Positions 6,441-64,000 are shown, numbered from the stretch's first letter. The stretch: DNA of 64,000 bases from Candidatus Latescibacterota bacterium (GCA_965116885.1 OZ220741.1:1408001-1472000), one strand, 5' to 3'. The notes: generated by a model not told the origin, from the sequence alone. A program made the numbers and translations.

Positions 6441-6441
6441 A

Positions 6442-7372: not shown

Positions 7373-7389
7373 TGTTTATCTATCAATTA

Positions 7390-9518: not shown

Positions 9519-9519
9519 T

Positions 9520-10185: not shown

Positions 10186-10200
10186 GTTTTTCCTTTCTGT

Positions 10201-10959: not shown

Positions 10960-10974
10960 AATCCGGTCCTCATA

Positions 10975-11820: not shown

Positions 11821-11842
11821 GGCTGTCTCCTTTCCGTTTGTT

Positions 11843-41364: not shown

Positions 41365-41365
41365 T

Positions 41366-42383: not shown

Positions 42384-42434
42384 AAGTCACCTCAGTAAAA
42401 TCTGATTGTTATTATTCTCTCGCACATTCTATAA

Positions 42435-42450
42435 AGCAAGATGCGTGCCA
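42435..42450 (-). promoter_or_regulatory. Sigma54 promoter (copy A)
   Basis: TGGCACGCATCTTGCT, matching consensus TGGCACG-N4-TTGCW. Confidence 0.9.
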
Positions 42451-42557
42451 TAAATTTGTTGAAATAAAAAAAAGCACTTAAAAATGCTCAAGTGCTTGAA
42501 AAACAAAAAGATAAAATGTTTATGTTTTAAATTCTATAAGTTGTCGCTTTCTGTGAA

Positions 42558-43987: not shown

Positions 43988-43992
43988 ATCTC

Positions 43993-45144: not shown

Positions 45145-45249
45145 CGTACCACCTCGAGATTCTGGTCTCATCAGGACGGCTATATTTTGTCTTGAATTGT
45201 GGGGCATTACATGATATGCTTATTTTGCGGAAGAAAAAATAAAAATAAA

Positions 45250-45283
45250 AGGCATACTTCACCCGTCAAAGCAAAGTATGCCT
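45250..45283. promoter_or_regulatory. Conserved inverted repeat (candidate operator), copy A
   Basis: AGGCATACTT-N14-AAGTATGCCT; identical arms at 63493-63526. Confidence 0.6.
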
Positions 45284-45391
45284 CCGACCATATCACCAAC
45301 CCATAAGCGAGTTGGCTTGATAAATAATTTCTATTCTTCGATGCTCGTTGTCGAAATTTTTTTTATACAATTCACACAGTTGAGGGACGCG

Positions 45392-45526
45392 ATGGTGAAT
45401 GAGGTCGTGACCATCAGGGTCTCCACACACCTTAAACAACATTGCGGCACACTTGTAATGATGATGACCAGGCATTTTAATAAAAAAAGAGCGGGTCCTT
45501 TTTGGCTCGCTCTTTTCAATACTTAA
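45392..45526 (+). pseudogene. 5' stub of the XRE-HTH/pentapeptide gene
   Basis: MVNEVVTIRVSTHLKQ matches MVNEVVATRISKHLKQ at 63636; homology ends at about 45440. Confidence 0.7.
45482..45516 (-). terminator. Rho-independent terminator closing the RiPP operon
   Basis: Minus strand AAAAGAGCGAGCC-loop-GACCCGCTC-TTTTTTT. Confidence 0.75.
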
Positions 45527-46943: not shown

Positions 46944-46988
46944 TGTGTCATCCTCTCAGAATAAATCTATTTGATTTTCAGGACAGGA

Positions 46989-48095: not shown

Positions 48096-49282
48096 TTATT
48101 TAACACACGATTATAGATGTCAAGCCACTGTGCTGTTTCTTGAGTTGGAGAAAATTGGTTTTCCACTTTATGTTTTGCGGTCTTCCCAAGCCTTTTTCTC
48201 AGTTCTGTATCCTCAAGTAATAGTTGCAATTTTTGGGATAACATATTGGCGTCACCAGAGGCAACAAGAAGGCAATCCCTATTATCTTCAACTATATCAA
48301 GAATACCACCAACTTGAGAGGCCACAATGGGCAGTTCGCAGGCCATCGCCTCCAAGAGTGCATTTGGTGAACCTTCATGAAGCGAAGGGAAGGCAAAAAT
48401 ATCCATCTCCCTCATCCACGCCATCACTTCTCGATGTGGAATATAACCCGTAAATACAATGTGCCTTTTTATCCCCAGATCACTGATCTGCTGCAACATA
48501 TCTCTTTTATAGGATTCTTGTGCAAACTGACCTACAACGAGCAAATAAGAATCGGGATAAACTTTAACAATCTCTCCAAATGCCTGTAAGAGAATGTGAA
48601 ACCCCTTTATAGGCCGCAAAAATCCAGCAGTTCCAATGACTGTGCCACCTTGTGATTTCATCCGTAAAAAGGTTTCAGTAAGTACTTGCAGTCTATTATT
48701 ATGCTCTCCTGTTATTTCTGGCAGTGCGCGTACATCAAATATTGACACATCAAAAACATTGGGGATGACCTTTCCTGCTTTGATGCTTACCGTTCGACGC
48801 ATTTTTTGCATGAGTTCAGATGATACTGACGTTACATAATCGGCCCGTTCTAATACCCACCTTAGATTTGCTAAGTGTTGGATGCTATAGCGCAAGACTT
48901 CCCAATCGCTACCTCGAACACTGGCGATGAAAGGTCGCTCAATTTCAGCAGCCACGACTGCACCTAAAAAGCCAGGAGGCATAAGAAAAGCTGCATGAAC
49001 CAGGTCAAAACGCTGTTTCTGATGGAGTTTTACAATGTAGTTACCAAGCACCTGTAAACCATGCGGATCAGCATGATAATCTGATAATATTGAAAAAGTC
49101 CGATGTACTGTCACCCCATCTTCTACGACAGGTGAAATTTTATCTCTTAATTGATGGGGACCCGGCGCAATAATATGGATATTGACATCCCTTTTTGCCA
49201 GATTCTGGGCAATCCGATAAATTGCACTTCCCACTCCTCCTGGGTATGGTGGATATTGGTAGGTAACCAAGCAGATGTTCAT
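48092..49282 (-). CDS. GT4 glycosyltransferase
   Basis: PYPGGVG, KGF, PSLHEGSPNALLEAMA (E-x7-E). Confidence 0.92.
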   Translation of the reverse strand: MNICLVTYQYPPYPGGVGSAIYRIAQNLAKRDVNIHIIAPGPHQLRDKISPVVEDGVTVHRTFSILSDYHADPHGLQVLGNYIVKLHQKQRFDLVHAAFLMPPGFLGAVVAAEIERPFIASVRGSDWEVLRYSIQHLANLRWVLERADYVTSVSSELMQKMRRTVSIKAGKVIPNVFDVSIFDVRALPEITGEHNNRLQVLTETFLRMKSQGGTVIGTAGFLRPIKGFHILLQAFGEIVKVYPDSYLLVVGQFAQESYKRDMLQQISDLGIKRHIVFTGYIPHREVMAWMREMDIFAFPSLHEGSPNALLEAMACELPIVASQVGGILDIVEDNRDCLLVASGDANMLSQKLQLLLEDTELRKRLGKTAKHKVENQFSPTQETAQWLDIYNRVLNK

Positions 49283-49292
49283 GCTTACCTCC

Positions 49293-50600
49293 TCAGTGTA
49301 TGCCTGGTGTTCTTGGCTTTCGTATCACCAGCAGGCCCCATCGCACTATTGTCTTAGTTGATCTCATCAGCCTTTTCATCATTCGATATATAGCAAAACT
49401 TAACATCAAGATGAGTAGAGAAGGAAAAAAGAACCTTGACAGGGCACTCCCAATATTTTTCCAATCTCCAGCGGCAAAGCCGCTTATTATCTCGCTAAAA
49501 GTCTTATATACAAGACCGGGATAGTTTGAAATCAAATCGGGAAAGAGAAAAAAAATCTTGTAAAAGAACAAGACGAAGAAGCTGGCACTGACAATTCCAT
49601 ACACGCAGAGAAACGATTTTATCTTCCCACTGATGCGTAAAAAAATAGGTTCAGCAATCTCTCTCTCTCTTAAAATGAAACGCTTGACAAAGTATTTCAG
49701 AATTTCTAAAGATCTTTTTCTGAGATTTGGCACGCCTGCTATATCTGAAAAAAGCCAATACCCATCAAATCGGAAAATTGGATTCAAGTTAAACAGTGCT
49801 GACCCGTAGTTAAAAAGAATCAAAAATAAAAACACGCTACTTGCTGTCGTCAGATACAGTATGAAGAGTATAGGAATAAAAATAAGCTGAAAATATATAC
49901 CTCCGAAATCCACCATCGCACGTTGCATTCTCGGTAGCCTCCAGGCATCCGTTACATTAGAATAAAGAACGGGAAAGCGCAGATACAATCCTATCCCAAT
50001 CTCTCCGGGTGACGCGCCATAATAAGCACAAGCTGAAGCATGACCTAACTCGTGGAAAATCCCTAAAACACCAAAAATTATCAGCGTTAGAATCGTATCT
50101 TGAAACGAAATATCATAAATAGTAAAGTCTATGACTTGGAGTTGAAAAAAATAGAAATACCCAAAAAAGACAAAAGAGAAAAAAATAAAAGAGATCAAAA
50201 TTTTTGGATAAAAAAGAGTCTTGAGAATATTACTAACGGCATGAACCGCATTCGCCCGCATAAAAGGGTATTGAAAATAAAAATACGAATTGCTTGTTTG
50301 AGCATCTACATCTGAGGTTGTATTTTCAAGGATTCCGTAGGGTTTTAGAAATGAATGGATAATTGCAGCAATGTCTTTGGCAGAGTATGTCTTATTCCTG
50401 ATAGAAGAGTATGCGCTTGCAATTTCAGACAGCGTTTTTTTGCCGTCTATCAACTCGATGATTTGATAGACACCCTCGCTTATTTCAAACCGTTTCGTGC
50501 CTATGCACAAAACATAACTTTCCTCTACTAAAGCGGTATCGAATTTATACATAGAGATTTTCGGAACCAACTTAATCGGATCTGGTAGGGATTCTTGCAT
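49293..50600 (-). CDS. M50-type membrane zinc peptidase with N-terminal PqqD/RRE-like domain
   Basis: HELGH, NLNPIFRFDGY, TM helices; N-terminal IIELIDGKKTLSEIA typical of PqqD-like RREs. Confidence 0.82.
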   Translation of the reverse strand: MQESLPDPIKLVPKISMYKFDTALVEESYVLCIGTKRFEISEGVYQIIELIDGKKTLSEIASAYSSIRNKTYSAKDIAAIIHSFLKPYGILENTTSDVDAQTSNSYFYFQYPFMRANAVHAVSNILKTLFYPKILISFIFFSFVFFGYFYFFQLQVIDFTIYDISFQDTILTLIIFGVLGIFHELGHASACAYYGASPGEIGIGLYLRFPVLYSNVTDAWRLPRMQRAMVDFGGIYFQLIFIPILFILYLTTASSVFLFLILFNYGSALFNLNPIFRFDGYWLFSDIAGVPNLRKRSLEILKYFVKRFILREREIAEPIFLRISGKIKSFLCVYGIVSASFFVLFFYKIFFLFPDLISNYPGLVYKTFSEIISGFAAGDWKNIGSALSRFFFPSLLILMLSFAIYRMMKRLMRSTKTIVRWGLLVIRKPRTPGIH

Positions 50601-50750
50601 GGTGTATTCCTGTCTTGACTCTAAGAGACTATTTTAAAAATCCTTCCGGGAGCGCAGGCGTCACGCTGTTTTCACCCATCGCCTATTTGGTCCCAAATGG
50701 ACATGAGAATGCTTTGTCTATGCAAGTCTCTGAGGGTTTTAAAATAGCTT

Positions 50751-51752
50751 CTAAGGGTTTTCGGTTTCCATTACAAGTTTACTCACTCGATCAATTTCTT
50801 GCTCCTTATGTTTTTGCAGATTGCGGAGCAAAACGGACATTTCAGATATGCTATGGTCAATCGCAATCTCCCAGTCCGTGCAGGGTACCTGATGAACATA
50901 AGACAATGCCTGTCTATAGCAATCTATTGCATGATCGAGAATTTCTTCTGCCAGCCCTGTAAAGTAAATCATACGCGCAAGTTCTTCCAGGGTAACGGAT
51001 TCTAATTTTTCGTGAAGCTCCTTTCTGTCAATGATTTGAGACAAAAGGTACGAATATCTGCCAGCGATAAAGTCATCTCTCCAATTTTTAAGATCATTAT
51101 GAAATTGTAAGCCCGTAAAAAAGGCATCTAAGGATTTTTCAAGAAGACGGATCAATTCCGGTGAGTCAGACAAACAGGCTAAAGCAGTTGTCACCATCTG
51201 GATTGTGGCGGCTTTACCAGAGGCAATATCAAACGCCTCATCCAATGAATAAAATGTGGGATTATTCCATTTTGTTCTTTCTTGTAGTGTTGCAGCAATG
51301 GCGCGACGCTGATACTTTTTGGCAAAGGCCCAAAAATCCGAACCTGGGGGGAATAAGTCATTGAGAAGACCAAACGCATGATCTCTCAAAAGAGAAGCAA
51401 AAAAATAGGCATCTACTTTGAGAGTCTCCCGCTCATCAAAAACATCATCCATATACGATGTGTAGATGTATAATGACCGATTGACAAAATACAATTTCTG
51501 CTGTGTGTCTTCGTCCAGGACAAATACCTCCGAGAACTGCGATGTAAAGGAAGTATGTACATCAGTGGATAGAAATACGGGATATTGTTTTAGGGCAGCC
51601 TCCAGATCATATTCTTCACATATCTGAGACATAAATTGATAAAATTCGACTTCGGATTTTTTGATTGAGATATCATCTTGAAGACCAAAGTTCAGTGAAG
51701 CAATTTCATCCTCAATAGAGGCAAAGGGGTCTGATGGCAAATGTGTATTCAT
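50751..51752 (-). CDS. Class I isoprenoid-synthase-fold protein (candidate ComQ-like peptide prenyltransferase)
   Basis: DDVFD (DDxxD), SGKAA, GLQFHNDLKNWRDD second metal motif. Confidence 0.7.
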   Translation of the reverse strand: MNTHLPSDPFASIEDEIASLNFGLQDDISIKKSEVEFYQFMSQICEEYDLEAALKQYPVFLSTDVHTSFTSQFSEVFVLDEDTQQKLYFVNRSLYIYTSYMDDVFDERETLKVDAYFFASLLRDHAFGLLNDLFPPGSDFWAFAKKYQRRAIAATLQERTKWNNPTFYSLDEAFDIASGKAATIQMVTTALACLSDSPELIRLLEKSLDAFFTGLQFHNDLKNWRDDFIAGRYSYLLSQIIDRKELHEKLESVTLEELARMIYFTGLAEEILDHAIDCYRQALSYVHQVPCTDWEIAIDHSISEMSVLLRNLQKHKEQEIDRVSKLVMETENP

Positions 51753-51809
51753 GTCAAGGTCCTTTTTGAAAACTTTAAAAAGAGATAGGTTTCTGAATCA
51801 ATTCATAAA

Positions 51810-54440
51810 CTACTGCAGGGATATTGAATCACCATTGACAGGCGCGTGACTATGCTGACGTGTCTCCTTGAGGAGTGTATTATTCCCCAAAAGATTGGTG
51901 CAGCCCGAAAGGCTATCAATAAATGAAAGCGTCTGTTCTGTACCATTTAGGTTAAGCTCGTGGGTAAGAGATTTTTGATGGGATAAATGCTGCATAATAC
52001 TGTCTGCGACGCTATCAGGCGTCAGGTCAACCGGATCAATTTTCTTTACCAGTCCCAAATCGGACAGCCTACTTGCTCTGATATCTTGATCTTCAGAGAG
52101 TAAACTCGGTACAAGGAGTGCTGGAGTACTGGTTTCCAGAATATTGACACAAGTATTGTAACCCGCCCGGCTGATTACAAGATTGGCTGCCTGCATCCAT
52201 TGAAGAAAATCAGGTGTATATCGCCTTATATAGAACGGGCCCATTTCACACATTCGTTCCAAAGTCTCGTATTGGTCATCATTGATAAACGGGCCAGGAA
52301 ATATGACCATTTTCCAACCATCCATCTTTCCCTGTTTATGCAGCAATTTCCAGGCTTTGATACAAGGCACAATAAGCTCGTAACCGTCAACACCACCACC
52401 TGCGCTAACCATCACAAAGTTCTCTATGTTCTCATCTGGTTTTCTACATATCCCGTCATGCGGCTTTTCAGAGACATATCCAGTATATACAATCGGTATG
52501 ACAATATCTTCTATCCAGGGGAAATATTCTTTTAGTTGGGTCACGCTCGGATCTCCATGAACAAGCAAGGCATCAAAGTAAGCATTTAATGTCGGACAAA
52601 CTTCCTCATAGTATCTTTTAGCTTTATATAGGTCCTGGTCTTGAGGGGTCAGGAGGTCAGGTCTTTCTACATTAATACTCGAATGAGGCTTAAAAATATC
52701 AGCCGTTCTCGCCCGTAGCGGAATATCGCGCAAAGAGCAGATGATATGAATATCCGGAATTTTTGATTTAACCATTCCCAACAGGTATTGTAATTCTGGG
52801 CGTAGCTTCCATCGACCAAAGGGAAAATGTTCAATCATAATTACATCTGGCTGGATGTCTGTAACCGTCTCTGTCAATTTAATTAGCCTTTTCTCGAAAG
52901 TCTCCCGGATACCTTGATCCTCGTCTTCAGAGGCTAATCCCTCCGGCGTAAGTGAAATAGGCATTAATTGGATTAAATTAATGGATCCCTGCATTTTGAA
53001 ATCGGGAATTGGGCGTCCCCCATTCACAAAGTGAACGTCGTAATTTTGGGATAGTTCACGAGCGATTTGAAGGTTGCGAAAGTGATGGCCCATGCCAACG
53101 AGATGCTGGCTATACAGGATGATACGCTTCCTGCGGGATCTTGATAGTGGCTTGGATGCCCGATGTCGTTTTCCCTGGGTCGCGTGCTTGTATATGGGTT
53201 CATAATTTGCCACTACTTGCTGCCAATCTTTGTGTTCCGAAATCCACTGTCGTGCCCGATGCCCAAGTTCCGCTCTAAGTTGTGTATCTTCAATTAAAGC
53301 CGAGCATTTCTGCGCGAGATTCTCTGGATCATCAGCATTACATATACGCCCCGTCGTGCCGTCATCTATAATTTCCCGAAGCGCAGCCACATCGCTGACA
53401 ATGACGGCTTTTCCCATTGCCATGGCTTCATACGGCTTAATAGGGGTCACCAATTCCGTTACGCGGCTTCGTACTCTGGGTATGACAAAAATATCAATCA
53501 AGGCATAATAGTCGAAAACATCTTCGTGTGGTACCTGTCCTGTAAAGTGTACAACCGAGTCTAAACCCAATTCTGTTGCAAGCCGCTGAAGTGGTTCTAC
53601 CTCATCTCCACCACCAACAATGAGAATTTTAATCTGAGGATGACGAGATAGGAGCATTTTTCCTGCTTTGAGAAGCCAACGAAGACCTTCAAGTTTTCTG
53701 ATTGAACCAATATGTCCGATGGTTACGCTATCGGAACCAAGCCCTAATCGCTCTGCCAAATGGGTTGGGTACGGTCTCGGTGTAAATTTCGATGTATCTA
53801 CACCATTGGGAACAATGAAAATTTTGTCTTCAGGAATCCCTTCTCGGATAAACTCCTCTTTCATTGTTTCAGCCAATGTGACGACCTGATCGGCTCGTTT
53901 CATGGCCTCTACAAACAAAAAGTGTCGGTGCTGATATGCTTTTGAAGAAGTATCAAGGGTTCCTGCAACCACGCCCGTTTCATGCCATAATCCGCGCACT
54001 TCATAGATCACAGGTAGGTTGTATTTGTGTCCGACTTTAGCTGATATTAATGCATTCTGGGCAGGAGAAGCAACATGGATCACCTCGGGTTTGTGAACTT
54101 CGACAACACGAGAAATATGATTCTGAAACTGCCGTTGCAATCCCTCACGATGTAATGCAGCAGAATATCGTGTCTGACGAAAACCAAGGTCATGGAAATG
54201 TTGATCAAGCAATGCCTGGGTCATGTCGTTCAAGTACAATACCCCATCCAGATACTCCTCTTCAACAAGAAATTTACTGTCTATAAGATGAGTGTCTTTG
54301 AAGCGGGTTGCTACAATAGGTTCAAGCCCTATTCTACTCTGGGTATCAAAGATATATTTGCTTCTGATTGTGTAACCCGCCTGTCGAGATCGCAGAGAAT
54401 AATCCAAAACATGTAGGACCTTCATAACTAAACCTTTCAT
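51810..54440 (-). CDS. Fused double glycosyltransferase (GT4 + GT28-C-like)
   Basis: N-half GYTIRS, YEVRGLW, VTPIKPYEAMA; C-half YSQHLVGMGH, EHFPFGR, SAGGG, SRAGYNT, EDQDIRA. Confidence 0.88.
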   Translation of the reverse strand: MKGLVMKVLHVLDYSLRSRQAGYTIRSKYIFDTQSRIGLEPIVATRFKDTHLIDSKFLVEEEYLDGVLYLNDMTQALLDQHFHDLGFRQTRYSAALHREGLQRQFQNHISRVVEVHKPEVIHVASPAQNALISAKVGHKYNLPVIYEVRGLWHETGVVAGTLDTSSKAYQHRHFLFVEAMKRADQVVTLAETMKEEFIREGIPEDKIFIVPNGVDTSKFTPRPYPTHLAERLGLGSDSVTIGHIGSIRKLEGLRWLLKAGKMLLSRHPQIKILIVGGGDEVEPLQRLATELGLDSVVHFTGQVPHEDVFDYYALIDIFVIPRVRSRVTELVTPIKPYEAMAMGKAVIVSDVAALREIIDDGTTGRICNADDPENLAQKCSALIEDTQLRAELGHRARQWISEHKDWQQVVANYEPIYKHATQGKRHRASKPLSRSRRKRIILYSQHLVGMGHHFRNLQIARELSQNYDVHFVNGGRPIPDFKMQGSINLIQLMPISLTPEGLASEDEDQGIRETFEKRLIKLTETVTDIQPDVIMIEHFPFGRWKLRPELQYLLGMVKSKIPDIHIICSLRDIPLRARTADIFKPHSSINVERPDLLTPQDQDLYKAKRYYEEVCPTLNAYFDALLVHGDPSVTQLKEYFPWIEDIVIPIVYTGYVSEKPHDGICRKPDENIENFVMVSAGGGVDGYELIVPCIKAWKLLHKQGKMDGWKMVIFPGPFINDDQYETLERMCEMGPFYIRRYTPDFLQWMQAANLVISRAGYNTCVNILETSTPALLVPSLLSEDQDIRASRLSDLGLVKKIDPVDLTPDSVADSIMQHLSHQKSLTHELNLNGTEQTLSFIDSLSGCTNLLGNNTLLKETRQHSHAPVNGDSISLQ

Positions 54441-54565
54441 AATGAACTCTGAATAAACCGTGAGTGAGGTTTTTTAGGGATGATGTCCCGCTATCATCAC
54501 GATAAGGCCGTCTGCCTTGGTGAAATACAAATTCGGATAGTGCATCGCCTATAGACACCGGAATA

Positions 54566-57500
54566 TTATGGCGCGAAAGGGTGGCGTGGTGTGATTTTAT
54601 CCACAAAACGCCATCGTACCGCATCGGCATACAAGGTCCCCTTTGCGCGGTCAGACAATTCGACTACAGCCTCTACTCCCTCGACAAATTTGTATCGCCC
54701 CAGGTGATTCCAGCCCGCTTTCATAAGATCGCGCTCCATTTCAAGCGTATCGACCTTATCCGCGTGAAAAACAGTAAGTGTAAAGGTCGTACCAATGCCC
54801 TCGCGCCTGGCTATTGCGGGATCGGGAAAATAGAAGCCCACATCAAACTCGCCATCTCTGGGGATTCGCGCGGCCCACACAGCCGGCTGTGCGCCATCGC
54901 CCGGTTTCTTTTGCCGATAATTTTTTGTATACCGCCCATAAGCTGTCGGCAGGCTACGCTCGCGCCAGTTGCCCCCTTCAAGACCGGGACGAGAGTAGCG
55001 CGTCGTTCGCCGAATCGGCATTGAAAATCCCTTGTCGTCATTATCTACAATGATCTCAAAAGGCCCCATATCTGCACGGATTACATCCCCTTCTCCTGTC
55101 ACATCTTTGAGATAGGCCATGGGAGTCCCCCCTGTAACCTGTTCAGGAACGCGCACAGGAGAGATAAGCGGTTGGCGATTGCGTGCAAAAAAGGGTTCGA
55201 CGATCACCCGCAAGGGTTGCTCCCACAGCACCATCGAAACTTCGATTTCCTGACCGCCTTCAATCTCTACGCCCTTTACTGCCTCATCATTTTGACCAAT
55301 GGCCGTGATTTGCACATAGCCCCTGCCGGGTTCGCTATTCTTAATGCGCACAATCAGTTGGTAAACTAGCGTTCCGGAGCCATCGTCTACCTTCAAGGCT
55401 TTTACACTTGTCAATTTATAGCCCGGGATTTCCGTGCTATATATCCAATCTTTAACCAGACGCTGTAATCTCTGGCGATTTTCATCTTCGGTGTAGCCTG
55501 CGGCGGCACGTTCAAAGGTCGAAAAATCGATGTCCTTGTATTTGTAATTCTGGCTAATGTCGGCCAAGAAGGTGCGGAATGTTTCTTCACCCAAAAAGGA
55601 GGCGAACATCCCAAAGAGTGCAGGCCCCTTGGCGTCGAGAGCCTGGCGATAAAGGTCCGCCTCCTGTTCGGGATCTAAATCGGCAAATGACTTGCCCTGC
55701 ATCTCGGCAATCAGCTTGTTCCAAGCTCTCGTTTTTCTTCTGCTTATAAACGCCGCCTCGCGCGCCCTGTCACTGTTGCGTCGTTGGCTTGGGTAAAAAG
55801 CGGCTGTTAGATCGGTTCTCAAGTCATTCTGTAGATACATGGGCAGACCCTTTTTAAGCAGGGCATAATGGTCGCCCACAAACTGCTTGTCATAAGCCCA
55901 GAGTTGAAAAACAGGGCTACGAAACAGTCCATTGGATTTTATTGCCGCGTTTTCTTCAGAAAAAAAAGTTGAAAAAATGGCGCGTATCAAAATATCCTTT
56001 TTAACATTTTTGGGATCTTGATTCGATTGCTTTTGTTTCTTTTGGATAACCACCTGCCGCAAGAGCACATCTTCTTCAATCATCAACACGCCCGGCTGTG
56101 TCAGGCCGCCCTTTTCTTCCCAGCCTTCGTAATACCACTGAATATGGAACGGAACTTCCACCAGTGAAAGGCTCGGATAGGGATATTTCATGCCAGATTC
56201 CTGTTCCATGAGATCCACGATTTGCCCGAGCGCACGCACAATCTCTTTTTTTGCACCTTCAAAAAATTTAATCGGACGCAGATGTGAAGGATGCACGTAA
56301 AGGGCACATTCGATGTCGTGAATGGTGGCGCGATACACGCGATATACACCAGCATTGAGCGATAGGACAGGCACGGGATTTTCAACAACCCATTGGCGGG
56401 TCACTTGTGTGCCGAGGGTATCGGTCTTGCCGATCTGCCCCTGGGTAATGACTTCGAGACCTTTGGGAAATGTGATATGCAAGTTGGCCGTTGAAAAAGA
56501 GACCGGGCGCGCATTTTTATAGCCATAATCAACGCCCGTGACGGGATACCAGCGGCTTCGCGGCGGCAAAAAGATGGACTTGTCGCGAATCCACGCCGTC
56601 AAAGAGCCACTGTACCCCTTATCTTTCCGCAACCTCGGTTTGCCTTTTTCTCGCTTGAGATCAAAACCATCCGTGTTAATATCACCCGCATATGCTAACG
56701 TCAGATCGAGTTTTTGTTCCGATTGCAGGGGGGTAGTGGGCACGACACTAATCACGCTTTCCGTCCGCTCCCATGCTATTGCTCTGCCATCAGCGTGCGT
56801 CAGACTTTGGATTTTGAATCCGGGATTGAGTGAAAGAATCAACGTATCGAGCGGGGATTCGTGAGGATTTCTCAAGCTAATCGTGCCAGAGGTTGTAAGT
56901 AGCTCCTCTCCCAAAAGCGTCAATGCCAGATCGTAATGGGTGATTTCCGCTACGGAAATATGTGCAATCGCTTCCTGCTGCGCGAGCAAGGACTGGCGAT
57001 ACGCTTGCCTATTTCGAGCTTCCGCATCCACATAAAAGTAAAGACCAGCAGCCAATCCAAAACCGGTCAACGCACATCCCCAGCCAAACCACCGCGCAGT
57101 CGCAGAATGTGCAAGACGGGGATATCGATCAATCGCAAATCCCAAAAAACTTATGCCGAGCAAAATGTAAAACACGCGTTGCAAACCCACTTGCGTCATA
57201 TTCCCTATGCCCATCAGGTCCGAATAATCCATGTGGGTCGCAAGAGAAATGAAATCGAAGAGGTCGGGATATTGTTTGCCCAGATATAATATCACAGCGA
57301 GCGAATACGCTGTTGCGACCAAGGCAGCCGCTATTGGACGACGCAGCAAGACGCCTAAAAAAAATGTCAGAGAAGACATAAAAACCAAGGCGGGTAGGTT
57401 CAAGAGCACGAGGTATAAAATATAAGGTTTGACTGTCAGTGGATTGCCCGTCATGCTGATCGTTGCTGCCTGAAGGCCCAGAGTCAAAAACAGGATCCCA

Positions 57501-57856
57501 AGGCTAAAAAAGAAAAGCGCGCTAACCGTGCCCAGATACTTACCCGCAACCAGTTCTGCCGTTGAAATAGGACGCCCGGCAACTACTTCATAAATGTGGG
57601 CATTTTCGTCAGCCGCTCTAAAAGACCCCGCCATAAATGGAATGACAAGGGTTTGAAATAAAGTGTATATAAGAAAAAGAAAGTAAGATTCTTTTCCCGG
57701 AGGCATTCCAAATTCAGTATCTATGGCAAGACGAATGCCGTAATAAACGAAAATGCCCAAGGGGAAGATGCCCAAAATGCGAAATTTTGTAGTTCTCAAA
57801 AGCATTTTGCGCTCATAGCGTGCAACACCAAGTATATTGTTGAGAATAGAGAACAT
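54566..57856 (-). CDS. ABC permease fused to degenerate M1-aminopeptidase-like domain and C-terminal beta-sandwich
   Basis: N-terminal TM block (RPISTAELVAGK); LNPG, WYP, YPY..L.LVEVP M1 scaffold without HExxH; GWNHLG...ADAVRW tail; start MFSILN with AGGAG SD. Confidence 0.75.
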   Translation of the reverse strand: MFSILNNILGVARYERKMLLRTTKFRILGIFPLGIFVYYGIRLAIDTEFGMPPGKESYFLFLIYTLFQTLVIPFMAGSFRAADENAHIYEVVAGRPISTAELVAGKYLGTVSALFFFSLGILFLTLGLQAATISMTGNPLTVKPYILYLVLLNLPALVFMSSLTFFLGVLLRRPIAAALVATAYSLAVILYLGKQYPDLFDFISLATHMDYSDLMGIGNMTQVGLQRVFYILLGISFLGFAIDRYPRLAHSATARWFGWGCALTGFGLAAGLYFYVDAEARNRQAYRQSLLAQQEAIAHISVAEITHYDLALTLLGEELLTTSGTISLRNPHESPLDTLILSLNPGFKIQSLTHADGRAIAWERTESVISVVPTTPLQSEQKLDLTLAYAGDINTDGFDLKREKGKPRLRKDKGYSGSLTAWIRDKSIFLPPRSRWYPVTGVDYGYKNARPVSFSTANLHITFPKGLEVITQGQIGKTDTLGTQVTRQWVVENPVPVLSLNAGVYRVYRATIHDIECALYVHPSHLRPIKFFEGAKKEIVRALGQIVDLMEQESGMKYPYPSLSLVEVPFHIQWYYEGWEEKGGLTQPGVLMIEEDVLLRQVVIQKKQKQSNQDPKNVKKDILIRAIFSTFFSEENAAIKSNGLFRSPVFQLWAYDKQFVGDHYALLKKGLPMYLQNDLRTDLTAAFYPSQRRNSDRAREAAFISRRKTRAWNKLIAEMQGKSFADLDPEQEADLYRQALDAKGPALFGMFASFLGEETFRTFLADISQNYKYKDIDFSTFERAAAGYTEDENRQRLQRLVKDWIYSTEIPGYKLTSVKALKVDDGSGTLVYQLIVRIKNSEPGRGYVQITAIGQNDEAVKGVEIEGGQEIEVSMVLWEQPLRVIVEPFFARNRQPLISPVRVPEQVTGGTPMAYLKDVTGEGDVIRADMGPFEIIVDNDDKGFSMPIRRTTRYSRPGLEGGNWRERSLPTAYGRYTKNYRQKKPGDGAQPAVWAARIPRDGEFDVGFYFPDPAIARREGIGTTFTLTVFHADKVDTLEMERDLMKAGWNHLGRYKFVEGVEAVVELSDRAKGTLYADAVRWRFVDKITPRHPFAP

Positions 57857-57933
57857 GGGATTACTCCTGTTTAAGCGATCAGCTTTCAGCCTCTCCCTCC
57901 ACATCTAAAGGCGAGAAGCGAGCCTTGTTTTCT

Positions 57934-58833
57934 TCATCCCGCGATTTCATCAGCGGTGTTGCTGCCCATAAAATAGAGATATGCATCTTCGAGATTGGGT
58001 GCGACCACTTTGGCATCAGCGGGTGGCTCGCCATCGCCCACCATCCGAACACTCAGGCGATCACCTTCAACATTGACCGTCACCACATGAAACACACGCG
58101 ACAGCTTTTCAAAGTGAGGCTCATCAACACGTATTTGCCACGTCTTGCCATCGGCCTTTGAAATGAGGTCTGATGGAGAGCCGCGAAAGATCAGTTGTCC
58201 ACGATTCAAAATCGCGAGATACTTGCAAGTGCTCGAAATATCACCCACAATATGCGTAGAGATCAAAATTACACGATCGCTGCTCAAGCGACCTAAAATG
58301 CCTCGAAACCGGATGCGTTCTTCCGGGTCAAGCCCCACAGTCGGTTCATCGACAATCAGAAAACCTGGATCGGTCAAAATGGCCTGTGCAATGCCAAGAC
58401 GCCGTATCATGCCACCGGAAAACGTACCCGTGCGCCGCTTGCGTGCATCGTACAACCGGACTTCATTCAATGCTTGTTCAACACGCGCCAAACGCTCGCT
58501 CTTATTGTGGATGCCACCCAAAACAGCCATATAATCAAGAAATTCCCAGGCGGTTAGTTGTCGATAGGTGCCAAAATTTTGTGGCAAATATCCAAGGCGT
58601 CGGCGAATTTCTGTGCGGTCTTTTACCAGATCGAACTCATCCATGGTCACGCTGCCACTCGATGAGTCCATTTGGGTCGATAAAATTTTAATCAGTGTTG
58701 TTTTGCCCGCGCCATTGGGTCCCAGTAGGCCAAATGTTCCGTGAGGAATGCTCAAGGTGATATCGTCCAGGGCAGGCGCATCGCCGCGCCGATATGTTTT
58801 TGTCAGGTTTGAGATGCGAATGACCATCAGCAT
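57934..58833 (-). CDS. ABC transporter ATP-binding subunit
   Basis: GPNGAGKT, FSGGM, IVDEPT, STH. Confidence 0.95.
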   Translation of the reverse strand: MLMVIRISNLTKTYRRGDAPALDDITLSIPHGTFGLLGPNGAGKTTLIKILSTQMDSSSGSVTMDEFDLVKDRTEIRRRLGYLPQNFGTYRQLTAWEFLDYMAVLGGIHNKSERLARVEQALNEVRLYDARKRRTGTFSGGMIRRLGIAQAILTDPGFLIVDEPTVGLDPEERIRFRGILGRLSSDRVILISTHIVGDISSTCKYLAILNRGQLIFRGSPSDLISKADGKTWQIRVDEPHFEKLSRVFHVVTVNVEGDRLSVRMVGDGEPPADAKVVAPNLEDAYLYFMGSNTADEIAG

Positions 58834-58872
58834 GCCTCCTGAATATTTTACGCGATCAAAAAAGTATAAGAA

Positions 58873-58921
58873 TGGTCAAGACCACCTATCTTTTGACAAA
58901 CAATATAAGTGGTCTTGACCA
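58873..58921 (-). terminator. Stem-loop downstream of the precursor gene
   Basis: Perfect 13-bp inverted repeat TGGTCAAGACCAC / GTGGTCTTGACCA, extendable with a G-U pair. Confidence 0.65.
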
Positions 58922-59013
58922 GCAAACTAAGCAAAGACCTCTAACAATAACTTCTACGGCTTGCTCCTACAGTCCTCAATACCACAATATTATTACTGCC
59001 GTAGAGCTCGCTA

Positions 59014-59250
59014 TTAGCTGTCGATCGTGCAGTCGTGTTCTCCACAAGAGCCTCCGCCGATGTCTTTTCCACAGTCATGCCACAGACAAAAGCCATCATC
59101 ATCATCCGTGGTGCAGTCATGAGTGATGCACCACATTTCCAACCTTTCTTCAAGCGCATCAACGACCAGATCCTCATAGAGTTCAGGATACGACGCGATG
59201 TGTGCTTTGAGTTCAATCTCTGAAGAGATGTGAGCAGACAAATTAGCCAT
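59014..59250 (-). CDS. Putative RiPP precursor peptide (39-aa leader + 39-aa Cys/His/Asp core)
   Basis: AGGAGG SD 8 nt upstream; directly after the rSAM gene; core WCITHDCTTDDDDG FCLWHDCGKDIGGG SCGEHDCTIDS. Confidence 0.85.
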   Translation of the reverse strand: MANLSAHISSEIELKAHIASYPELYEDLVVDALEERLEMWCITHDCTTDDDDGFCLWHDCGKDIGGGSCGEHDCTIDS

Positions 59251-59345
59251 GATACTACCCTCCTGGTGTTGAAACGTGAACAGATAACATCGGCGTTTCT
59301 ACTACTTATCACACATAATGCCTCCTTTCTCGAGCGTTATACTTA

Positions 59346-61052
59346 CTATAAAGTTTGTTGTTTGTACTCCTCAAATACCTCAGGCACGACCGTATGGAAA
59401 ACCTTGGGATACTCATCGCAATAGGACGTTTTGATATTGCCATCATTTTTTACATAAGCATGTGCAGCACATCCACCGCCACAAAAGAATGCATATTTGC
59501 ACTTACTGCAAGATGGCACATTAGAAATATTCCGATCATACCATTCTGATAAATGTTCATCATTGAATTCAACTTTATCCAAATAATTTCCAACTTTGTA
59601 CCGGTCTACACCCACCAATTCCCAACACGTATAGAGGTCTCCATAAGGATCAAGGATCAACATACCGTTCTGTGCGCCACAGAAGATGGGCCTAAAACTT
59701 AATAGCCCTTTACCATCAAGAGCTCGCTTGAAGGTCTGTCTAATGCCAGCATCTTGGCAAGAAATTTGGTGCATTAAGTCGGGATTTTCTTTTACAAACT
59801 GATAGTATTTGCGAGTAAACTCTCTTCTTGGCATCACCGAAACTTCTCCATTTTCAGAACGTACGGATTCCATTTCAAGCACAATGGGGCTTGTGCCTTT
59901 GCGGTAGTTCGAAAAAATTTCTTCCTCTCGTTCCACATCGATATATTGCTCTTCATCTATGTACACTCCAGGATCAAAAATTTCCTGTTCCTGGGGCTCA
60001 TTGTCCTTGAAAGATATGACAGAGGCAACAGACTCGGAGGGTTCAGAATCTGATGTTGGTGCTTCAATTGAAATAAGAGGTGCCGTCTGACCATAATTGC
60101 CTGGCGTCTTTTTACCAGACATTGTAGCACTACACGACATGCCTTCTTCAATCTGATGTACCAAGGCAGAATAGGCCGAAAATTTCGGATACTCTGTAAA
60201 TCCTCTATCTTTGAACAAATCAAATAATGCAGGTAAAATATCCACATTGTCGTAATCTGTATTGATTCGCATTGAAACTTGCACATCAAGCGACAGAGCA
60301 AGTGCCACATTTTTCATGATCGCACCAAAACTATCTCCTGCACGATAATGTGGACGCTTGCGATTGTGATTTTCTTCTTCGCCATCTAAGGTAATCTGGA
60401 GGCGTCTGATTTTTTGGGGACCTAATAAATCCGTGAAATGATGAAGGTCATAGCCATTTGTAATCGCAGAAAAGATGTAATCGCGTTTCAAACCTTCATC
60501 TACAATATACCGCACGATCGCTTTATTTTTTGCTAACAAAGGTTCTCCCCCATACAGAGTAATGTTCTTGCTATGCATGGCTCTGTTGGGTTGAATTTCG
60601 CACATGGCCTGGTATGCCCGGTCAACCATCTCCTTTGTAAAGACTTGCTTTGACCAGCCCTTGCCATGAGATGAAATGTCATTTTCAAAACAATAAGGAC
60701 AGCGGAAGTTGCAATCGTAGGCCACCAAGAATAAGAAAGATGCAGAGCTTTGGCTTGAGTTGTGGTGGAGAAAATTCGCCATGCTATGCACGTATTCTCG
60801 TTCTTCCACAGGAGAACGACTGGTCAGATAGCCACGCTTCATTAAGGTTTGGATCGTTTCTTTTGAACAAGGCAGTTCATCAAACATATCTTCCGAGAGA
60901 ACAACCTTGCTTTTGATCATCTGAGCGACTTTTTTATTTACTCTATCTATTGCGCCTGTATAGCCATGAACGAGCAAAGTGTAATCTGGATCTTCAGGCA
61001 GCTTGACACAAATCGTATAGGACGATACGCGATATAATTCTGAATTTGCCAT
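59346..61052 (-). CDS. Radical SAM/SPASM peptide maturase
   Basis: CNFRCPYC, YGGEPLL, ITNG, QITLDG; SPASM CGA...DPYGDLYTC...CSKCKYAFFCGGGC...C; N-terminal RRE-like region. Confidence 0.93.
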   Translation of the reverse strand: MANSELYRVSSYTICVKLPEDPDYTLLVHGYTGAIDRVNKKVAQMIKSKVVLSEDMFDELPCSKETIQTLMKRGYLTSRSPVEEREYVHSMANFLHHNSSQSSASFLFLVAYDCNFRCPYCFENDISSHGKGWSKQVFTKEMVDRAYQAMCEIQPNRAMHSKNITLYGGEPLLAKNKAIVRYIVDEGLKRDYIFSAITNGYDLHHFTDLLGPQKIRRLQITLDGEEENHNRKRPHYRAGDSFGAIMKNVALALSLDVQVSMRINTDYDNVDILPALFDLFKDRGFTEYPKFSAYSALVHQIEEGMSCSATMSGKKTPGNYGQTAPLISIEAPTSDSEPSESVASVISFKDNEPQEQEIFDPGVYIDEEQYIDVEREEEIFSNYRKGTSPIVLEMESVRSENGEVSVMPRREFTRKYYQFVKENPDLMHQISCQDAGIRQTFKRALDGKGLLSFRPIFCGAQNGMLILDPYGDLYTCWELVGVDRYKVGNYLDKVEFNDEHLSEWYDRNISNVPSCSKCKYAFFCGGGCAAHAYVKNDGNIKTSYCDEYPKVFHTVVPEVFEEYKQQTL

Positions 61053-61105
61053 AAGAAAACCTCCCTTGGATTGCGTGGGTATTATATTTTTTTATCCATA
61101 TACGC

Positions 61106-61294
61106 TTATTTTGCGAAATAGAGACATATTTCACCAGCCAATAACGATTGTTGTTCTATCTCTCTATTTTGCTGGCTCATTCTACGCATCATCGCGCGCA
61201 AGGCTTCAGATCGAACTTCATCGTTCCAGATAGCATAGAGTAAGGCGAGATGAGCCAAATGATCGCGTTTTGTTATCTGTGTCTGAGCATTCAT
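61106..61294 (-). CDS. Small protein (62 aa), first gene of the RiPP operon
   Basis: GAGGTG SD; paralogue at 42216-42383. Confidence 0.7.
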   Translation of the reverse strand: MNAQTQITKRDHLAHLALLYAIWNDEVRSEALRAMMRRMSQQNREIEQQSLLAGEICLYFAK

Positions 61295-61345
61295 AAGTCA
61301 CCTCAGTAAATTCTGATGTCGTTATTGTCTTTGCACGTTATATAT

Positions 61346-61361
61346 GGCAAGATGCGTGCCA
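61346..61361 (-). promoter_or_regulatory. Sigma54 promoter of the RiPP operon
   Basis: TGGCACGCATCTTGCC. Confidence 0.88.
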
Positions 61362-61383
61362 TAAACTCGTTCGAAATAAAAAA

Positions 61384-61413
61384 AAGCACTTGAATACGCT
61401 CAAGTGCTTGAAA
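61384..61413. promoter_or_regulatory. Inverted repeat / IHF-like site between enhancer and promoter
   Basis: AAGCACTTGA-N6-TCAAGTGCTT; minus strand TTTCAAGCACTTG resembles WATCAA-N4-TTR; related site at about 42472-42500. Confidence 0.55.
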
Positions 61414-61467
61414 AATAAAAAGATAAAACTTTTATGTTTTAAGTGCTATAAGAGCAAAAGGGATTAA

Positions 61468-61509
61468 GTGCAACATTCATGTTACACTTTTGGAACATTC
61501 ATGTGGCAC
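61468..61509. promoter_or_regulatory. Tandem palindromic upstream activator sites (copy B)
   Basis: GTGCAACATTCATGTTACAC and TTGGAACATTCATGTGGCAC, offset by 22 bp, 107-148 bp upstream of the -24 box. Confidence 0.65.
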
Positions 61510-61578
61510 CTGCTGCTGTCGGTTGACCAACCATGACCGCTAAAAAGCGAGAGGCTGGTGGTGGCTGACGGCTGGTCG

Positions 61579-62967
61579 CTATCTGTAAGTGGATACATCT
61601 ATGGTATATTTGGAGATTAACCGTTGCAGCCTGTGGCGATTCATTCCATTCTGTCTGGCTGCACGGGACACATTGCCGTTGTGCGCTTTGAGGAGGCGGT
61701 CAATAAAAGTCCGCTCAAATTTCTCAATCACGGCATCTTTGGCGTCCTGGAAAGGTAAATCGGTCTGCGCGGAAACAATGGTATCTCCGGTCTGAGCGAT
61801 TAAATTTTCAGGTAAATCCTCGATCTGGATCGCATCCGCATCTGATAGGGCCATGGCTCGCTCCATCACATGCATCAGTTCTCGCACATTGCCTGGCCAG
61901 ATATATTCGCACAATACATCCATCGCCTCGGTTGAAATACCTTGAATCGCCTTTTCAGAGGTCTCGGCAAAGTCGTTCAAAAAGTGATGAGCAAGAAGTT
62001 GAATATCTCCATGCCGATCCCTCAGAGGTGGCAGGTGAATCTCAAAGGTGTTAATCCGATAAAACAAGTCCTCTCGAAACCTGCCCTCTCCAATCAATGC
62101 CTCGATATTCTGATTGGTAGCCGAGATGAGACGGATGTCGATTTCTATCTCCTCATTGCTTCCCAGCCTGCGAATTTTGTGATCTTCCAGAACGCGCAAG
62201 AACTTCACCTGAAGGGGCATGGGCAATTCCCCGATTTCATCGAGAAAAAATGTCCCGCCCTTAGCGTGTTCGATTAACCCAACGCGGTTCTGTTTCGCAT
62301 CTGTGAACGCCCCTTTCGCATGACCAAACAGTTCACTTTCAACCAGATGCTCTGGCAGGCCCCCACAGTTGAGCGGAACAAACGGCTTATGGCTGCGCTT
62401 GCTATTTGCGTGAATACACTGAGCCACCAGTTCTTTTCCCGTTCCACTTTCTCCCGTGATCAGGACATTGGCATCTATATCGCTGATTTTTCGTATTAAA
62501 TCAAAGACCTGGGTGATCGCTACACTATTCCCGATGATGTTTTCGAACCGGAATCGCGTATCCAGCATTTGTTTGAGATCTCTGTTCTCCAACCTCACAC
62601 GCCGCAGTTTCAGTGCCCGTTCTATGACGATTAAAAATTCCTCTGGATCAAACAGCTTTTGAAGAAAGTCGAATGCGCCTGCCTTTATGGCTTCAACAGC
62701 ACCTTCGATGGTTCCATATCCCGTAAAGACGATCACAATAGCCTCTTGATCGCGTGCCATAATGCTTTGGAGCACAGCCATCCCGTCCATTCCGGGCATT
62801 TTCAAATCTACAATGACCAGATCGGGATTTTCCGTCTCGAACAACGCGAGACCTGCCTCACCCGACTCTGCTACGACAACAGCGTACCCCGCTGCCTCCA
62901 GAAACTTCTGGCAACCGCGCAACATATCCTGCTCGTCATCTATTACGAGGATTTTCTCTTTGTCCAT
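61579..62967 (-). CDS. Sigma54-dependent response regulator (copy B)
   Basis: REC/AAA+ near-identical to 42632-43987; different C-terminal HTH. Confidence 0.95.
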   Translation of the reverse strand: MDKEKILVIDDEQDMLRGCQKFLEAAGYAVVVAESGEAGLALFETENPDLVIVDLKMPGMDGMAVLQSIMARDQEAIVIVFTGYGTIEGAVEAIKAGAFDFLQKLFDPEEFLIVIERALKLRRVRLENRDLKQMLDTRFRFENIIGNSVAITQVFDLIRKISDIDANVLITGESGTGKELVAQCIHANSKRSHKPFVPLNCGGLPEHLVESELFGHAKGAFTDAKQNRVGLIEHAKGGTFFLDEIGELPMPLQVKFLRVLEDHKIRRLGSNEEIEIDIRLISATNQNIEALIGEGRFREDLFYRINTFEIHLPPLRDRHGDIQLLAHHFLNDFAETSEKAIQGISTEAMDVLCEYIWPGNVRELMHVMERAMALSDADAIQIEDLPENLIAQTGDTIVSAQTDLPFQDAKDAVIEKFERTFIDRLLKAHNGNVSRAARQNGMNRHRLQRLISKYTIDVSTYR

Positions 62968-62972
62968 CTCTC

Positions 62973-63391
62973 TTACTCCGTTACGGGTTGACTGCTTACC
63001 TCAATTCTTTACGCAGGCCGATCACTTGACGTCCTATTCCGATAATTTTGGGCACGCCGGTTTTGAGATATCTACCGATATAGCCATCGTGTTCACTTCG
63101 GTAGGGTTCGAGCATCAGCATTTTGACATTGTTTCCGATCACTTCCTCAGCGCGGTAGCCGAATATCTTCTCGGCAGCAGCATTGAATGTTTGTACAATC
63201 CCCTGAGTGTCAATCGTAATAATCGCGTCAATGGTCGTTTCCAGGATCGCCTTGTAAATGGCTTGTCGTCTCTTCAAGTGCGGTGAGCCTGCCTGCGTCG
63301 CCGCAGAGGCAGGGATTTGGTCTCTGTGTCCATCCCTGCTTACACCCGCAGGTACATGCCTATTAATCTGTGGTTCTCCACGAGCGTTCAT
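62973..63391 (-). pseudogene. Truncated PAS kinase (HisKA and HATPase domains deleted)
   Basis: After GLRK the DNA jumps to the paralogue's 3' end (equivalent of 44061-44808 missing); a second small deletion and compensating frameshifts. Confidence 0.85.
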
Positions 63392-63492
63392 TATCTTACC
63401 TTGAGATTTTGGCCTAATGGACAGGTCCATTTTTGTCTTGAATTGCGGGGCATTACATGATATGCTTGTTTTGAGGAAAAAATAAAAATAGA

Positions 63493-63526
63493 AGGCATAC
63501 TTCACCGTCCAAAGCAAAGTATGCCT
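63493..63526. promoter_or_regulatory. Conserved inverted repeat (candidate operator), copy B
   Basis: AGGCATACTT-N14-AAGTATGCCT. Confidence 0.6.
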
Positions 63527-63635
63527 CCGACCTTATCACCAACCCGTAAGAAAGTTGGCTTAAAAACAATTTGTATTCTTTAATACTCGTTGTCGAGAAT
63601 TTCTTTTCACACAATTCACACAGTTGAGGTACGCG

Positions 63636-64000
63636 ATGGTGAATGAGGTTGTGGCGACCAGGATATCCAAACATCTGAAACAACTCTATAGCAAGAGCAA
63701 AAATGGACAGAATGGCTGGCTGAAATTAGAGGTTATGGAGTCTGAAACAGACGTCAGTCGCCAAACGCTAAGCAGAATCCTTAATGGAAAGGCGAACAGG
63801 CTTTATGACAGAACAGCAATGAATTTAGCCGACTATATTGAAAAGGAAACAGAGGGAGAATTATCTGCTGACTATCTACTCAATGAATCTCAAAAGAATT
63901 ATATTGGAGCAGATTTGACAGGGACGGATTTCTCAGGTGAGGATTTAACGCACTTCAATTTTGCTCAAGCAGATCTTACCGGAGCGAACTTTGAAGGAGC
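63636..64000 (+). CDS. XRE-type HTH + pentapeptide-repeat protein; runs off the window edge
   Basis: Not in ORF track. Manual translation MVNEVV...LEVMESETDVSRQTLSRILNG...ADYLL...GADLTGTDFSGEDLTHFNFAQADLTGANFEG; GAGGT SD. Confidence 0.8.
   Translation, partial: MVNEVVATRISKHLKQLYSKSKNGQNGWLKLEVMESETDVSRQTLSRILNGKANRLYDRTAMNLADYIEKETEGELSADYLLNESQKNYIGADLTGTDFSGEDLTHFNFAQADLTGANFEG

Follow-up and report, generated by a model that had tools for sequence, protein, structure and literature searches.

Among the systems closest to the locus described here, PapB, the enzyme of the freyrasin pathway, joins cysteine sulfur to Asp or Glu side chains through thioethers (PMC9413430 and PMC12373016). It works on C-X3-D/E sites and, according to PMC9413430, also accepts C-Xn-D with n from 0 to 6. 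The streptococcal enzyme NxxcB forms a beta-thioether between Cys and an Asn three residues apart, and PMC9389541 describes tolerance of Asp, Gln and Ala as well. In a stretch of 64,000 nucleotides from Candidatus Latescibacterota bacterium (GCA_965116885.1 OZ220741.1:1408001-1472000; the whole stretch is called the window below), a small gene on the minus strand (59014..59250) encodes a Cys-rich peptide and lies 95 nt downstream, on the same strand, of a gene for a radical S-adenosylmethionine (SAM)/SPASM peptide maturase (59346..61052, minus strand). We suspect that the peptide is the precursor of a ranthipeptide-like ribosomally synthesized peptide with post-translational modifications (RiPP), in which the adjacent enzyme would close thioether rings from Cys(i) to residue (i+3), and we give this reading a probability of roughly 0.55. 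An earlier note on this DNA had proposed a RiPP precursor with a leader ending in LEERLEM beside a radical SAM gene, and the maturase does lie directly upstream. Its description of PapB as acting at CX3D also agrees with PMC9413430.

The precursor gene is an ATG-started open reading frame (ORF) of 78 codons plus a stop, and its translation bears out the predicted peptide of 78 residues with a leader ending in DALEERLEM. A strong Shine-Dalgarno sequence, AGGAGG, can be read at 59259..59264 (minus strand), 8 nt 5' of the ATG. Residues 1-39 (codons 59134-59250, minus strand) form an acidic leader and the other 39 residues (codons 59017-59133) the core, which contains 6 Cys, 9 Asp, 3 His, 2 Trp and 6 Gly. 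The Cys stand at core positions 2, 7, 16, 21, 30 and 35, in three CxxHDCxxD units (CITHDCTTD, CLWHDCGKD and CGEHDCTID) joined by two D/G-rich linkers, and they keep the exact 14-residue period to which the earlier note had drawn attention. Among 200,000 shuffles of the core, any exact two-level period arose in 75 and three C-x4-C pairs in 134, so that the arrangement is not an effect of composition. The three units share 14-16 of 30 bases in pairwise comparison, so that no recent tandem duplication is involved and the period is kept at the protein level. Relative to the window, the leader codons of four related loci carry 8-9 synonymous and 6-10 non-synonymous differences over 36-39 codons. 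Because the leader is kept in these four loci and protein collections hold about 70 homologous peptides, the ORF is, judged by its conservation, a real coding gene. A tblastn search of the window with the leader found no further copy of the precursor.

Five related loci, referred to as L001-L005, came out of a genome scan with the maturase. Three of them (L002, L003 and L004) belong to Latescibacterota metagenome-assembled genomes, L003 and L004 coming from one genome, and L001 is in a bin labelled Gammaproteobacteria. In all four of the full-length related loci (L001-L004) a peptide with the same leader is encoded downstream of the maturase, and the leader alignment (A1) has 21 invariant columns. 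Across the window, L002, L003 and L004, identity is 81-86% for the enzyme and 74-85% for the leader, whereas it falls to 24-31% for the core, in which the number of Cys is 3, 6, 10 or 12. A conserved enzyme and leader with a divergent core are the classic signature of a RiPP. The remaining locus, L005, holds a decayed cluster at 5908-8029, where a fragment of the maturase (residues ~183-232) continues in frame into the 3' part of an ABC ATPase gene. This locus has no precursor, and the fused fragment is followed by ORFs of IS3-like transposases.

Searches with the peptide yielded six close peptides, 17 profile matches and 67 matches with a wider profile, for about 70 relatives overall, none of which carries a name. 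Two of the 17 profile matches, of 310 and 405 aa (P0018 and P0023), proved to be repeat proteins and were dropped as precursors. The distant peptides have in common a leader end of the form ...LN.ELYSDLSIEELEERLEM, followed by a Cys-rich core. Eleven 'longest contig' lengths are common to the peptide and maturase matches (e.g., 18937, 360623, 3262 and 7364), a hint that distant peptides and maturases may be co-located as well. Several members carry long poly-Gly, poly-Asp or (DDGS)n tails after just 2-3 Cys, namely L001 (P0010), L003 (7861-8112), P0019, P0155, P0157, P0160 and P0163, and the window peptide's D/G-rich linkers could be such tails in short form. In the open-access literature, searches on the leader motif, on Latescibacter RiPPs and on Bacteroidota thioether precursors found no published description of the family. 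It is unnamed, and both its maturase and its peptide lie outside all of the curated families compared.

The maturase, a protein of 568 aa, was recognized from NCBIfam and Pfam models, its Cys motifs and an AlphaFold2 model. A CX3CX2C motif at residues 114-121 (Cys 114, 118 and 121) is accompanied by seven SPASM Cys (458, 476, 515, 518, 524, 528 and 545; TIGR04085, 61.7 bits against a cut-off of 27). Every one of the 106 aligned homologues has all ten motif Cys. An eighth Cys beside the seven of SPASM, C432, is shared by 69 of them, and His takes its place in 16. At E <= 1e-10 there are 693 homologues. Among the 120 listed, 16 are 81-93% identical to the window enzyme, one is 58% identical, and many are at 40-51%, the last being labelled Elizabethkingia, Saprospiraceae, Balneolaceae, Ferruginibacter, Rikenella, Bacteroides or Butyricimonas. 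The names given to the listed proteins go no further than 'radical SAM protein', 'SPASM domain-containing protein' or similar.

We compared the maturase with the NCBIfam families through the best 25 of 60 rows, and give scores as bits over the curated cut-off. The enzyme falls short of the curated threshold for each family listed, scoring best with CefB (129.5/600), followed by the geopeptide maturase (119.6/400), PapB (NF047865, 115.7/340), TIGR04463 (109.1/525), FlmE/OhkG (107.3/500) and the SCIFF maturase (TIGR03974, 99.1/425). The top match in the PDB by sequence is CteB (5wgg, E 2.2e-19). Most of its closest curated and structural kin thus form Cys thioethers, in keeping with the earlier note's reference to PapB: the leading NCBIfam rows include PapB and SCIFF, and CteB heads the PDB matches. 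The AlphaFold2 model (pLDDT 85.1, pTM 0.83) was built on an alignment of 106 sequences, for which 105 of the 120 listed homologues were used after 9 near-duplicates and 6 short sequences had been dropped; confidence is low only in the acidic insert, at residues 303-364 and 394-404. Foldseek again places CteB first (E 3.7e-16, TM 0.72 target-normalised, 16% identity), and then TigE, ChlB and anSME. Residues ~1-100 are modelled as a confident strand-and-helix domain, as in CteB, with no PqqD-type match in Pfam, and this N-terminal domain may be leader-binding-like. An acidic insert predicted to be disordered (residues ~303-404) separates the radical SAM core from the SPASM domain. Across the 106 homologues the corresponding region (reference residues 300-405) can be as short as 8 or as long as 123 residues, and it is longest in the Latescibacterota-type enzymes.

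The evidence on ring geometry comes from the residue three positions after each Cys. Three sets of cores were compared: nine cores with 65 Cys, which include the window peptide and leave out the truncated L001 peptide; 14 further relatives with 108 Cys, independent of the first set and including the full L001 form, P0010; and a third set with 323 Cys. Together they hold 74 distinct cores, 496 Cys and 3053 core residues. Asp or Asn occupies position +3 after 38 of 65 Cys in the first set (13.9 expected) and after 57 of 108 in the second (18.5 expected), counts that were reached in none of 2000 shuffles in either case. The third set repeats the pattern (173 of 323), with Asn at 91 against 23.8 expected and Asp at 82 against 24.2, each in 0 of 1000 shuffles. 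After all 496 Cys, position +3 holds Asp 149 times and Asn 119 times (268 together), then Leu 35, Tyr 34, Gln 27, His 19, Phe 16 and Lys 8. Besides Asp, Asn and His (the last at 19 against 6.6 expected, 0 of 1000 shuffles), enrichment is seen there for Tyr, Phe, Leu and Gln. Gly, Ser, Thr, Pro, Val and Ile drop to 0.06-0.25 of expectation, and Ile, Thr and Val are common one residue earlier, at +2. A position that tolerates many side chains and shuns beta-branched residues, hydroxyl residues and the residue lacking a beta-carbon fits hydrogen abstraction at an unbranched C-beta.

The family rule is C-x-x-[D/N] and not CxxHDC. The earlier note had tied its proposal to conservation of CxxHDC in homologous loci, and no relative carries that motif: both the unit and the exact 14-residue period are peculiar to the window peptide. 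Its nearest relatives have C-x4-C pairs with 7-8-residue linkers and lack the His-Asp unit. Across the family, C-x4-C (Cys at +5) is enriched (22 of 65 and 24 of 108 Cys in the first two sets), and the first core Cys is invariant in alignment A3. The freyrasin spacing C-X3-D, on which the note had leaned, likewise fails as a rule, given that Asp or Asn at +4 is no commoner than by chance in the first set (16 of 65 against 13.4 expected, with three of the 16 from the window peptide) and depleted in the second (8 of 108 against 18.2). The note had assigned to each unit one CX3D and one CX2D site. The three CxxD sites fit the family; in the CxxHD segments it is His, not Asp, that stands at the conserved +3. 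The window peptide therefore has Asp at +3 of three Cys and His at +3 of the other three, all of them family-typical residues. Outside it there are 16 C-x-x-H sites, among them a C-terminal CDIHS that replaces the C-x-x-[D/N]-[S/T] of relatives.

Position +3 also bears on the possibility that the system makes a sactipeptide. In that scenario Cys sulfur would be linked to backbone alpha-carbons, possibly distant ones in a nested hairpin, and the preference for Asp and Asn would be structural. The architecture of the enzyme and its best PDB match are common to sactisynthases, the CteB entry is itself titled as a sactipeptide study, and Cys-rich cores are typical of the class. However, Gly, Ser, Thr and Ala are frequent sactionine acceptors, and these residues are avoided at +3, with ratios of 0.07-0.69. 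The signal is strictly local and periodic at i/i+3, whereas a hairpin would call for long-range pairing, and no Cys-free partner half is visible in the cores. We consider a sactipeptide unlikely.

A different scenario keeps the radical SAM enzyme and drops the thioether, so that the enzyme would make Trp/His cyclophane C-C bonds of the triceptide type, epimerise residues or oxidise Cys, and the Cys would serve as disulfides or metal ligands. There are weak matches of the maturase to cyclophane formers, all under their cut-offs (YhhB 67/445, HxsB 50.1/370 and FxsB 46.9/370 bits); ChlB (cited in a triceptide paper), TigE and anSME are among the fold matches, and the window core has one W-H-D triplet. 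Yet the cyclophane models score below the named thioether formers PapB and SCIFF. Cys is the sole residue kept in every core (496 in 3053 residues), its first occurrence being the invariant one in A3, whereas Trp is depleted at +3 and His amounts to just 45 of 3053 core residues family-wide. Chemistry of this sort seems to us distinctly unlikely.

The composition of the window peptide could also suggest that the core, modified or not, chelates metal through its Cys, His and Asp residues, with CxxHDC units as metal knuckles of an exported metallophore. With 6 Cys, 3 His and 9 Asp the core has ligands to offer, Asp, Asn and His at +3 are all possible ligands, and poly-Asp or poly-Gly tails are found in many relatives. 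Against this, His is rare in the family and CxxHDC unique to the window peptide, position +3 favours Leu, Phe and Tyr as well, which are not ligands, and a dedicated radical SAM maturase (81-86% identity) stands beside every full-length copy. Metal binding as the explanation of the locus is very unlikely, and the cross-linked product may itself bind metal. The cyclophane, the metal site and the S-glycosylation that the earlier note had listed as alternatives each have less in their favour than the thioether.

Thioether formation at i/i+3 is the reading we prefer, because PapB and NxxcB make beta-thioethers, NxxcB in an i/i+3 ring, and because the preference at +3 is for residues with an unbranched CH2. 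From this comparison we infer the formation of the thioether, the atom attacked and the pattern of the rings. The conserved 39-residue leader would bring the precursor to the adjacent radical SAM/SPASM enzyme, which would join each core Cys sulfur to a carbon of the +3 residue, most likely the side-chain beta-carbon, as in ranthipeptide-type thioethers. The product would be a string of small four-residue rings, six of them in the window peptide. The family-typical CxxD rings would be C7-D10, C21-D24 and C35-D38, and C2, C16 and C30 would each be linked either to His at +3, the family position, or to Asp at +4, the freyrasin-like spacing. Cleavage of the leader would follow ...RLEM, plausibly by a nearby intramembrane HExxH protease, and the product would leave the cell through the adjacent ABC system. 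Transcription would start from a sigma-54 promoter under the control of a neighbouring NtrC-type regulator.

Several points weigh against this scheme. The maturase is under every curated cut-off (CefB 129.5/600, PapB 115.7/340), so its chemistry is extrapolated, and SPASM enzymes of similar fold (TigE, ChlB and anSME) carry out unrelated chemistry. Asp or Asn follows at +3 after just three of the six Cys of the window peptide. The preference at +3 could result from turn formation or metal ligation instead. The peptide sequences are kin and not independent, which means that the significance from the shuffles is overstated, yet the signal is repeated in three sets. As for the later steps, the candidate protease is encoded at a distance of 8.4 kb, beyond a glycosyltransferase gene, and stays below its family cut-off (120.4/300 bits), and the M1-like domain beside the exporter has no zinc motif.

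A bolder proposal, which we hold to be doubtful, is that the family is an undescribed RiPP class spread over Latescibacterota and Bacteroidota. One highly conserved enzyme would act through no more than a leader and a minimal 'Cys, unbranched +3' rule and would staple hypervariable cores via beta-thioethers to Asp, Asn, His, Tyr, Phe or Leu. If this were true, the hypervariable cores would be a natural combinatorial library, and the window peptide would bear three Cys-His thioethers, a cross-link of which we know of no report. The +3 rule by itself, if true, would mean a thioether ring size and a range of acceptors that are new for radical SAM enzymes. The maturase would then also be a stapling enzyme that follows a leader and tolerates varied sequences, a type now wanted in peptide engineering (compare PapB). 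Finally, it would imply that uncultured Latescibacterota diversify such peptides quickly, as one genome holds two clusters with very different cores (L003 and L004).

Turning to the genes around the pair, we infer roles in leader removal, export and regulation from their sequences and positions. Leader removal is best assigned to a putative intramembrane metalloprotease with an HELGH motif (49293..50600, minus strand), encoded next to a 333-aa protein (50751..51752, minus strand). The 333-aa/protease pair is kept downstream of the precursor in all three loci with enough flank (the window, L002 and L003) while the intervening genes differ, which makes this protease the best candidate. In the window the interval holds an ABC system and a glycosyltransferase, in L002 an S41 peptidase and others, and in L003 a DUF5686 protein. 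L004 shares the ABC arrangement of the window, and its flank ends before the pair. The protease copies in L003 and L002 are 79-80% identical to that of the window, with HELGH in L003 and HEFGH in L002. All protease models match below their cut-offs, including the daptide model NF041824 (E 9.4e-35, 120.4/300), YydH/LiaK NF058609 (48.9/225) and Pfam M50 (20.9/27.2). The 333-aa protein is 79% and 76% identical to its counterparts in L002 (11668-12672) and L003 (10833-11837). It has no Pfam or NCBIfam match, and its Atlas matches are hypothetical clusters. In one cluster, at rank 17 (score 0.94), 47% of the members carry polyprenyl_synt. The 333-aa protein contains a DDxxD-like string; an isoprenoid-synthase-like fold is a weak lead. 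Directly downstream of the protease (45597-49282, minus strand) are genes for a GT4 glycosyltransferase, a WecB-type epimerase and a nucleotide-sugar dehydrogenase, an exopolysaccharide-type set.

The ABC system, a probable exporter by its sequence, begins with an ATP-binding subunit (57934..58833, minus strand; ABC_tran 105.6 bits; DrrA-type 190.8 bits, below the cut-off), which is found at the same position in L004. Between the precursor and this gene there is a 16-bp stem-loop with a U-run ~10 nt later (58874..58920, minus strand). Folding of the RNA from 58834 to 59016 (minus strand) gave a minimum free energy (MFE) of -53.2 kcal/mol (z -2.93), with the hairpin in both the MFE and the centroid structure; a simple terminator scan missed it. 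A possible role is that of a partial terminator raising the ratio of precursor to enzyme transcript. No Rfam family was found in 49000-64000. The ATP-binding subunit is followed by a 1112-aa membrane protein (54566..57904, minus strand; orthologue in L004 at 9441-12809), in which Pfam recognizes an ABC-2-type permease, an M1-peptidase-like region and a Golvesin C-terminal domain. Hydropathy shows several hydrophobic segments between residues 43 and 258. The M1-like region was rejected as leader peptidase, as it has neither HExxH nor GxMEN, and it is probably not a protease. The M1-like/Golvesin fusion on the permease may serve the exporter as a module that binds peptide without catalysis.

An 876-aa two-domain glycosyltransferase (GT4 plus GT28-C; 51810..54440, minus strand; Pfam glycosyltransferase domains, TIGR04063 336.1/442 bits) lies between cluster-linked genes in the window and in L004, and its membership of the cluster is uncertain. 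It raises the possibility that core Cys, Ser or Thr residues are glycosylated, since in the window the gene sits on the same strand and with short gaps between the exporter and the 333-aa/protease pair, and the arrangement in L004 is similar. In L002 and L003, however, the same interval has no glycosyltransferase. The protein best resembles a GT4 enzyme of the PEP-CTERM/exopolysaccharide type, and polysaccharide-type genes (GT4, WecB-type and sugar dehydrogenase) come after it. We regard glycosylation of the core as highly improbable.

Upstream of the maturase, an NtrC-type response regulator and putative sigma-54 activator is encoded at 61579..62967 (minus strand; Sigma54_activat 233.7 and Response_reg 104.5 bits in Pfam). 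NCBIfam models of the AtoC/PEP-CTERM type match it below their cut-offs, and the gene is also found upstream of the maturase in L002 and L004. In the intergenic space downstream of the activator gene there is a sigma-54 (-24/-12) promoter-like site, TGGCACGCATCTTGCC (61346..61361, minus strand), and a terminator-like hairpin (61384-61409, minus strand) lies between the activator gene and the site. The site has one mismatch to the consensus, and the pattern is not enriched in the window (46 found, 34.9 expected). L004 has an exact GG-N10-GC core in the corresponding position (5688-5702), and so does L005. Between the promoter-like site and the maturase gene there is a conserved 62-aa ORF (61106..61294, minus strand), for which no family match was found. 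A small ORF opens just 3' of the sigma-54 promoter in the window (61106-61294, 62 aa), in a paralogous copy at 42216-42383 (minus strand, 55 aa) and in L004 (5757-5945, 62 aa).

The paralogous copy is part of a segmental duplicate with 82-89% DNA identity, in which 61146-61452, 61841-62987 and 63006-63684 correspond to 42235-42540, 42861-44007 and 44807-45440. The duplicated module consists of a PAS kinase, a response regulator and a sigma-54 promoter, the copies are 19 kb apart, and both promoters read TGGCACGCATCTTGC. Of the kinase, the copy beside the RiPP genes keeps just a PAS-only ORF of 173 aa (62996-63517). The other promoter (42435-42450) precedes a gene for an outer-membrane beta-barrel and one for a dockerin/EF-hand protein (40042-42013, minus strand).

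It is useful to consider how this locus stands beside the described systems. Like freyrasin PapA/PapB, it pairs a radical SAM/SPASM enzyme with a leader-bearing precursor that has several in-line Cys...Asp sites, and PapB is in the top three NCBIfam matches. Unlike PapB, the window enzyme scores 115.7 against a cut-off of 340, and the spacing of its family is C-x-x-[D/N] (+3), with C-X3-D (+4) at chance or depleted in the relatives, although the window peptide has three C-X3-D sites. The family also takes Asn as commonly as Asp, as well as His, Tyr, Phe and Leu, at the acceptor position, its cores are hypervariable, and its enzyme has an acidic disordered insert of ~100 residues.

CefA/CefB, the 'Cys-every-fifth' system (NF038108/NF038107), is similar in that CefB gives the best NCBIfam score (129.5) and C-x4-C is enriched family-wide. 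The closest peptide relative, P0001, gives a weak CefA match within the core (E 0.0016; 18.3 bits, cut-off 30). However, the enzyme is far below the CefB cut-off of 600, CefA does not match the window peptide even at E <= 10, and the Cys of that peptide form three C-x4-C pairs split by 8-residue linkers instead of a continuous every-fifth array. Searches of the open-access literature on CefB, OhkG and FlmE found no published chemistry for CefB, and to our knowledge there is no experimental work on it.

The streptococcal NxxcA/NxxcB system has the same ring size and acceptor type as we propose for the window family. It differs in that the acceptor is upstream of the Cys in NxxC and downstream in the window family, and in that NxxcA has one ring against 2-12 Cys sites per core. 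No model named for NxxcB is among the best 25 of 60 NCBIfam rows, and this likeness is one of description. SCIFF/CteB (thermocellin) resembles the locus through its enzyme: CteB is the best PDB match by both sequence and fold, and the two enzymes share an N-terminal domain that may be of the leader-binding type, a radical SAM core and a SPASM domain that houses two auxiliary clusters. Set against this are a TIGR03974 score of 99.1 with a cut-off of 425, a structural identity of 16%, and unrelated precursors, the window peptide having no match to the SCIFF model. The locus is thus a member of none of the curated families scored, and by enzyme class and probable chemistry it works like a ranthipeptide or sactipeptide system.

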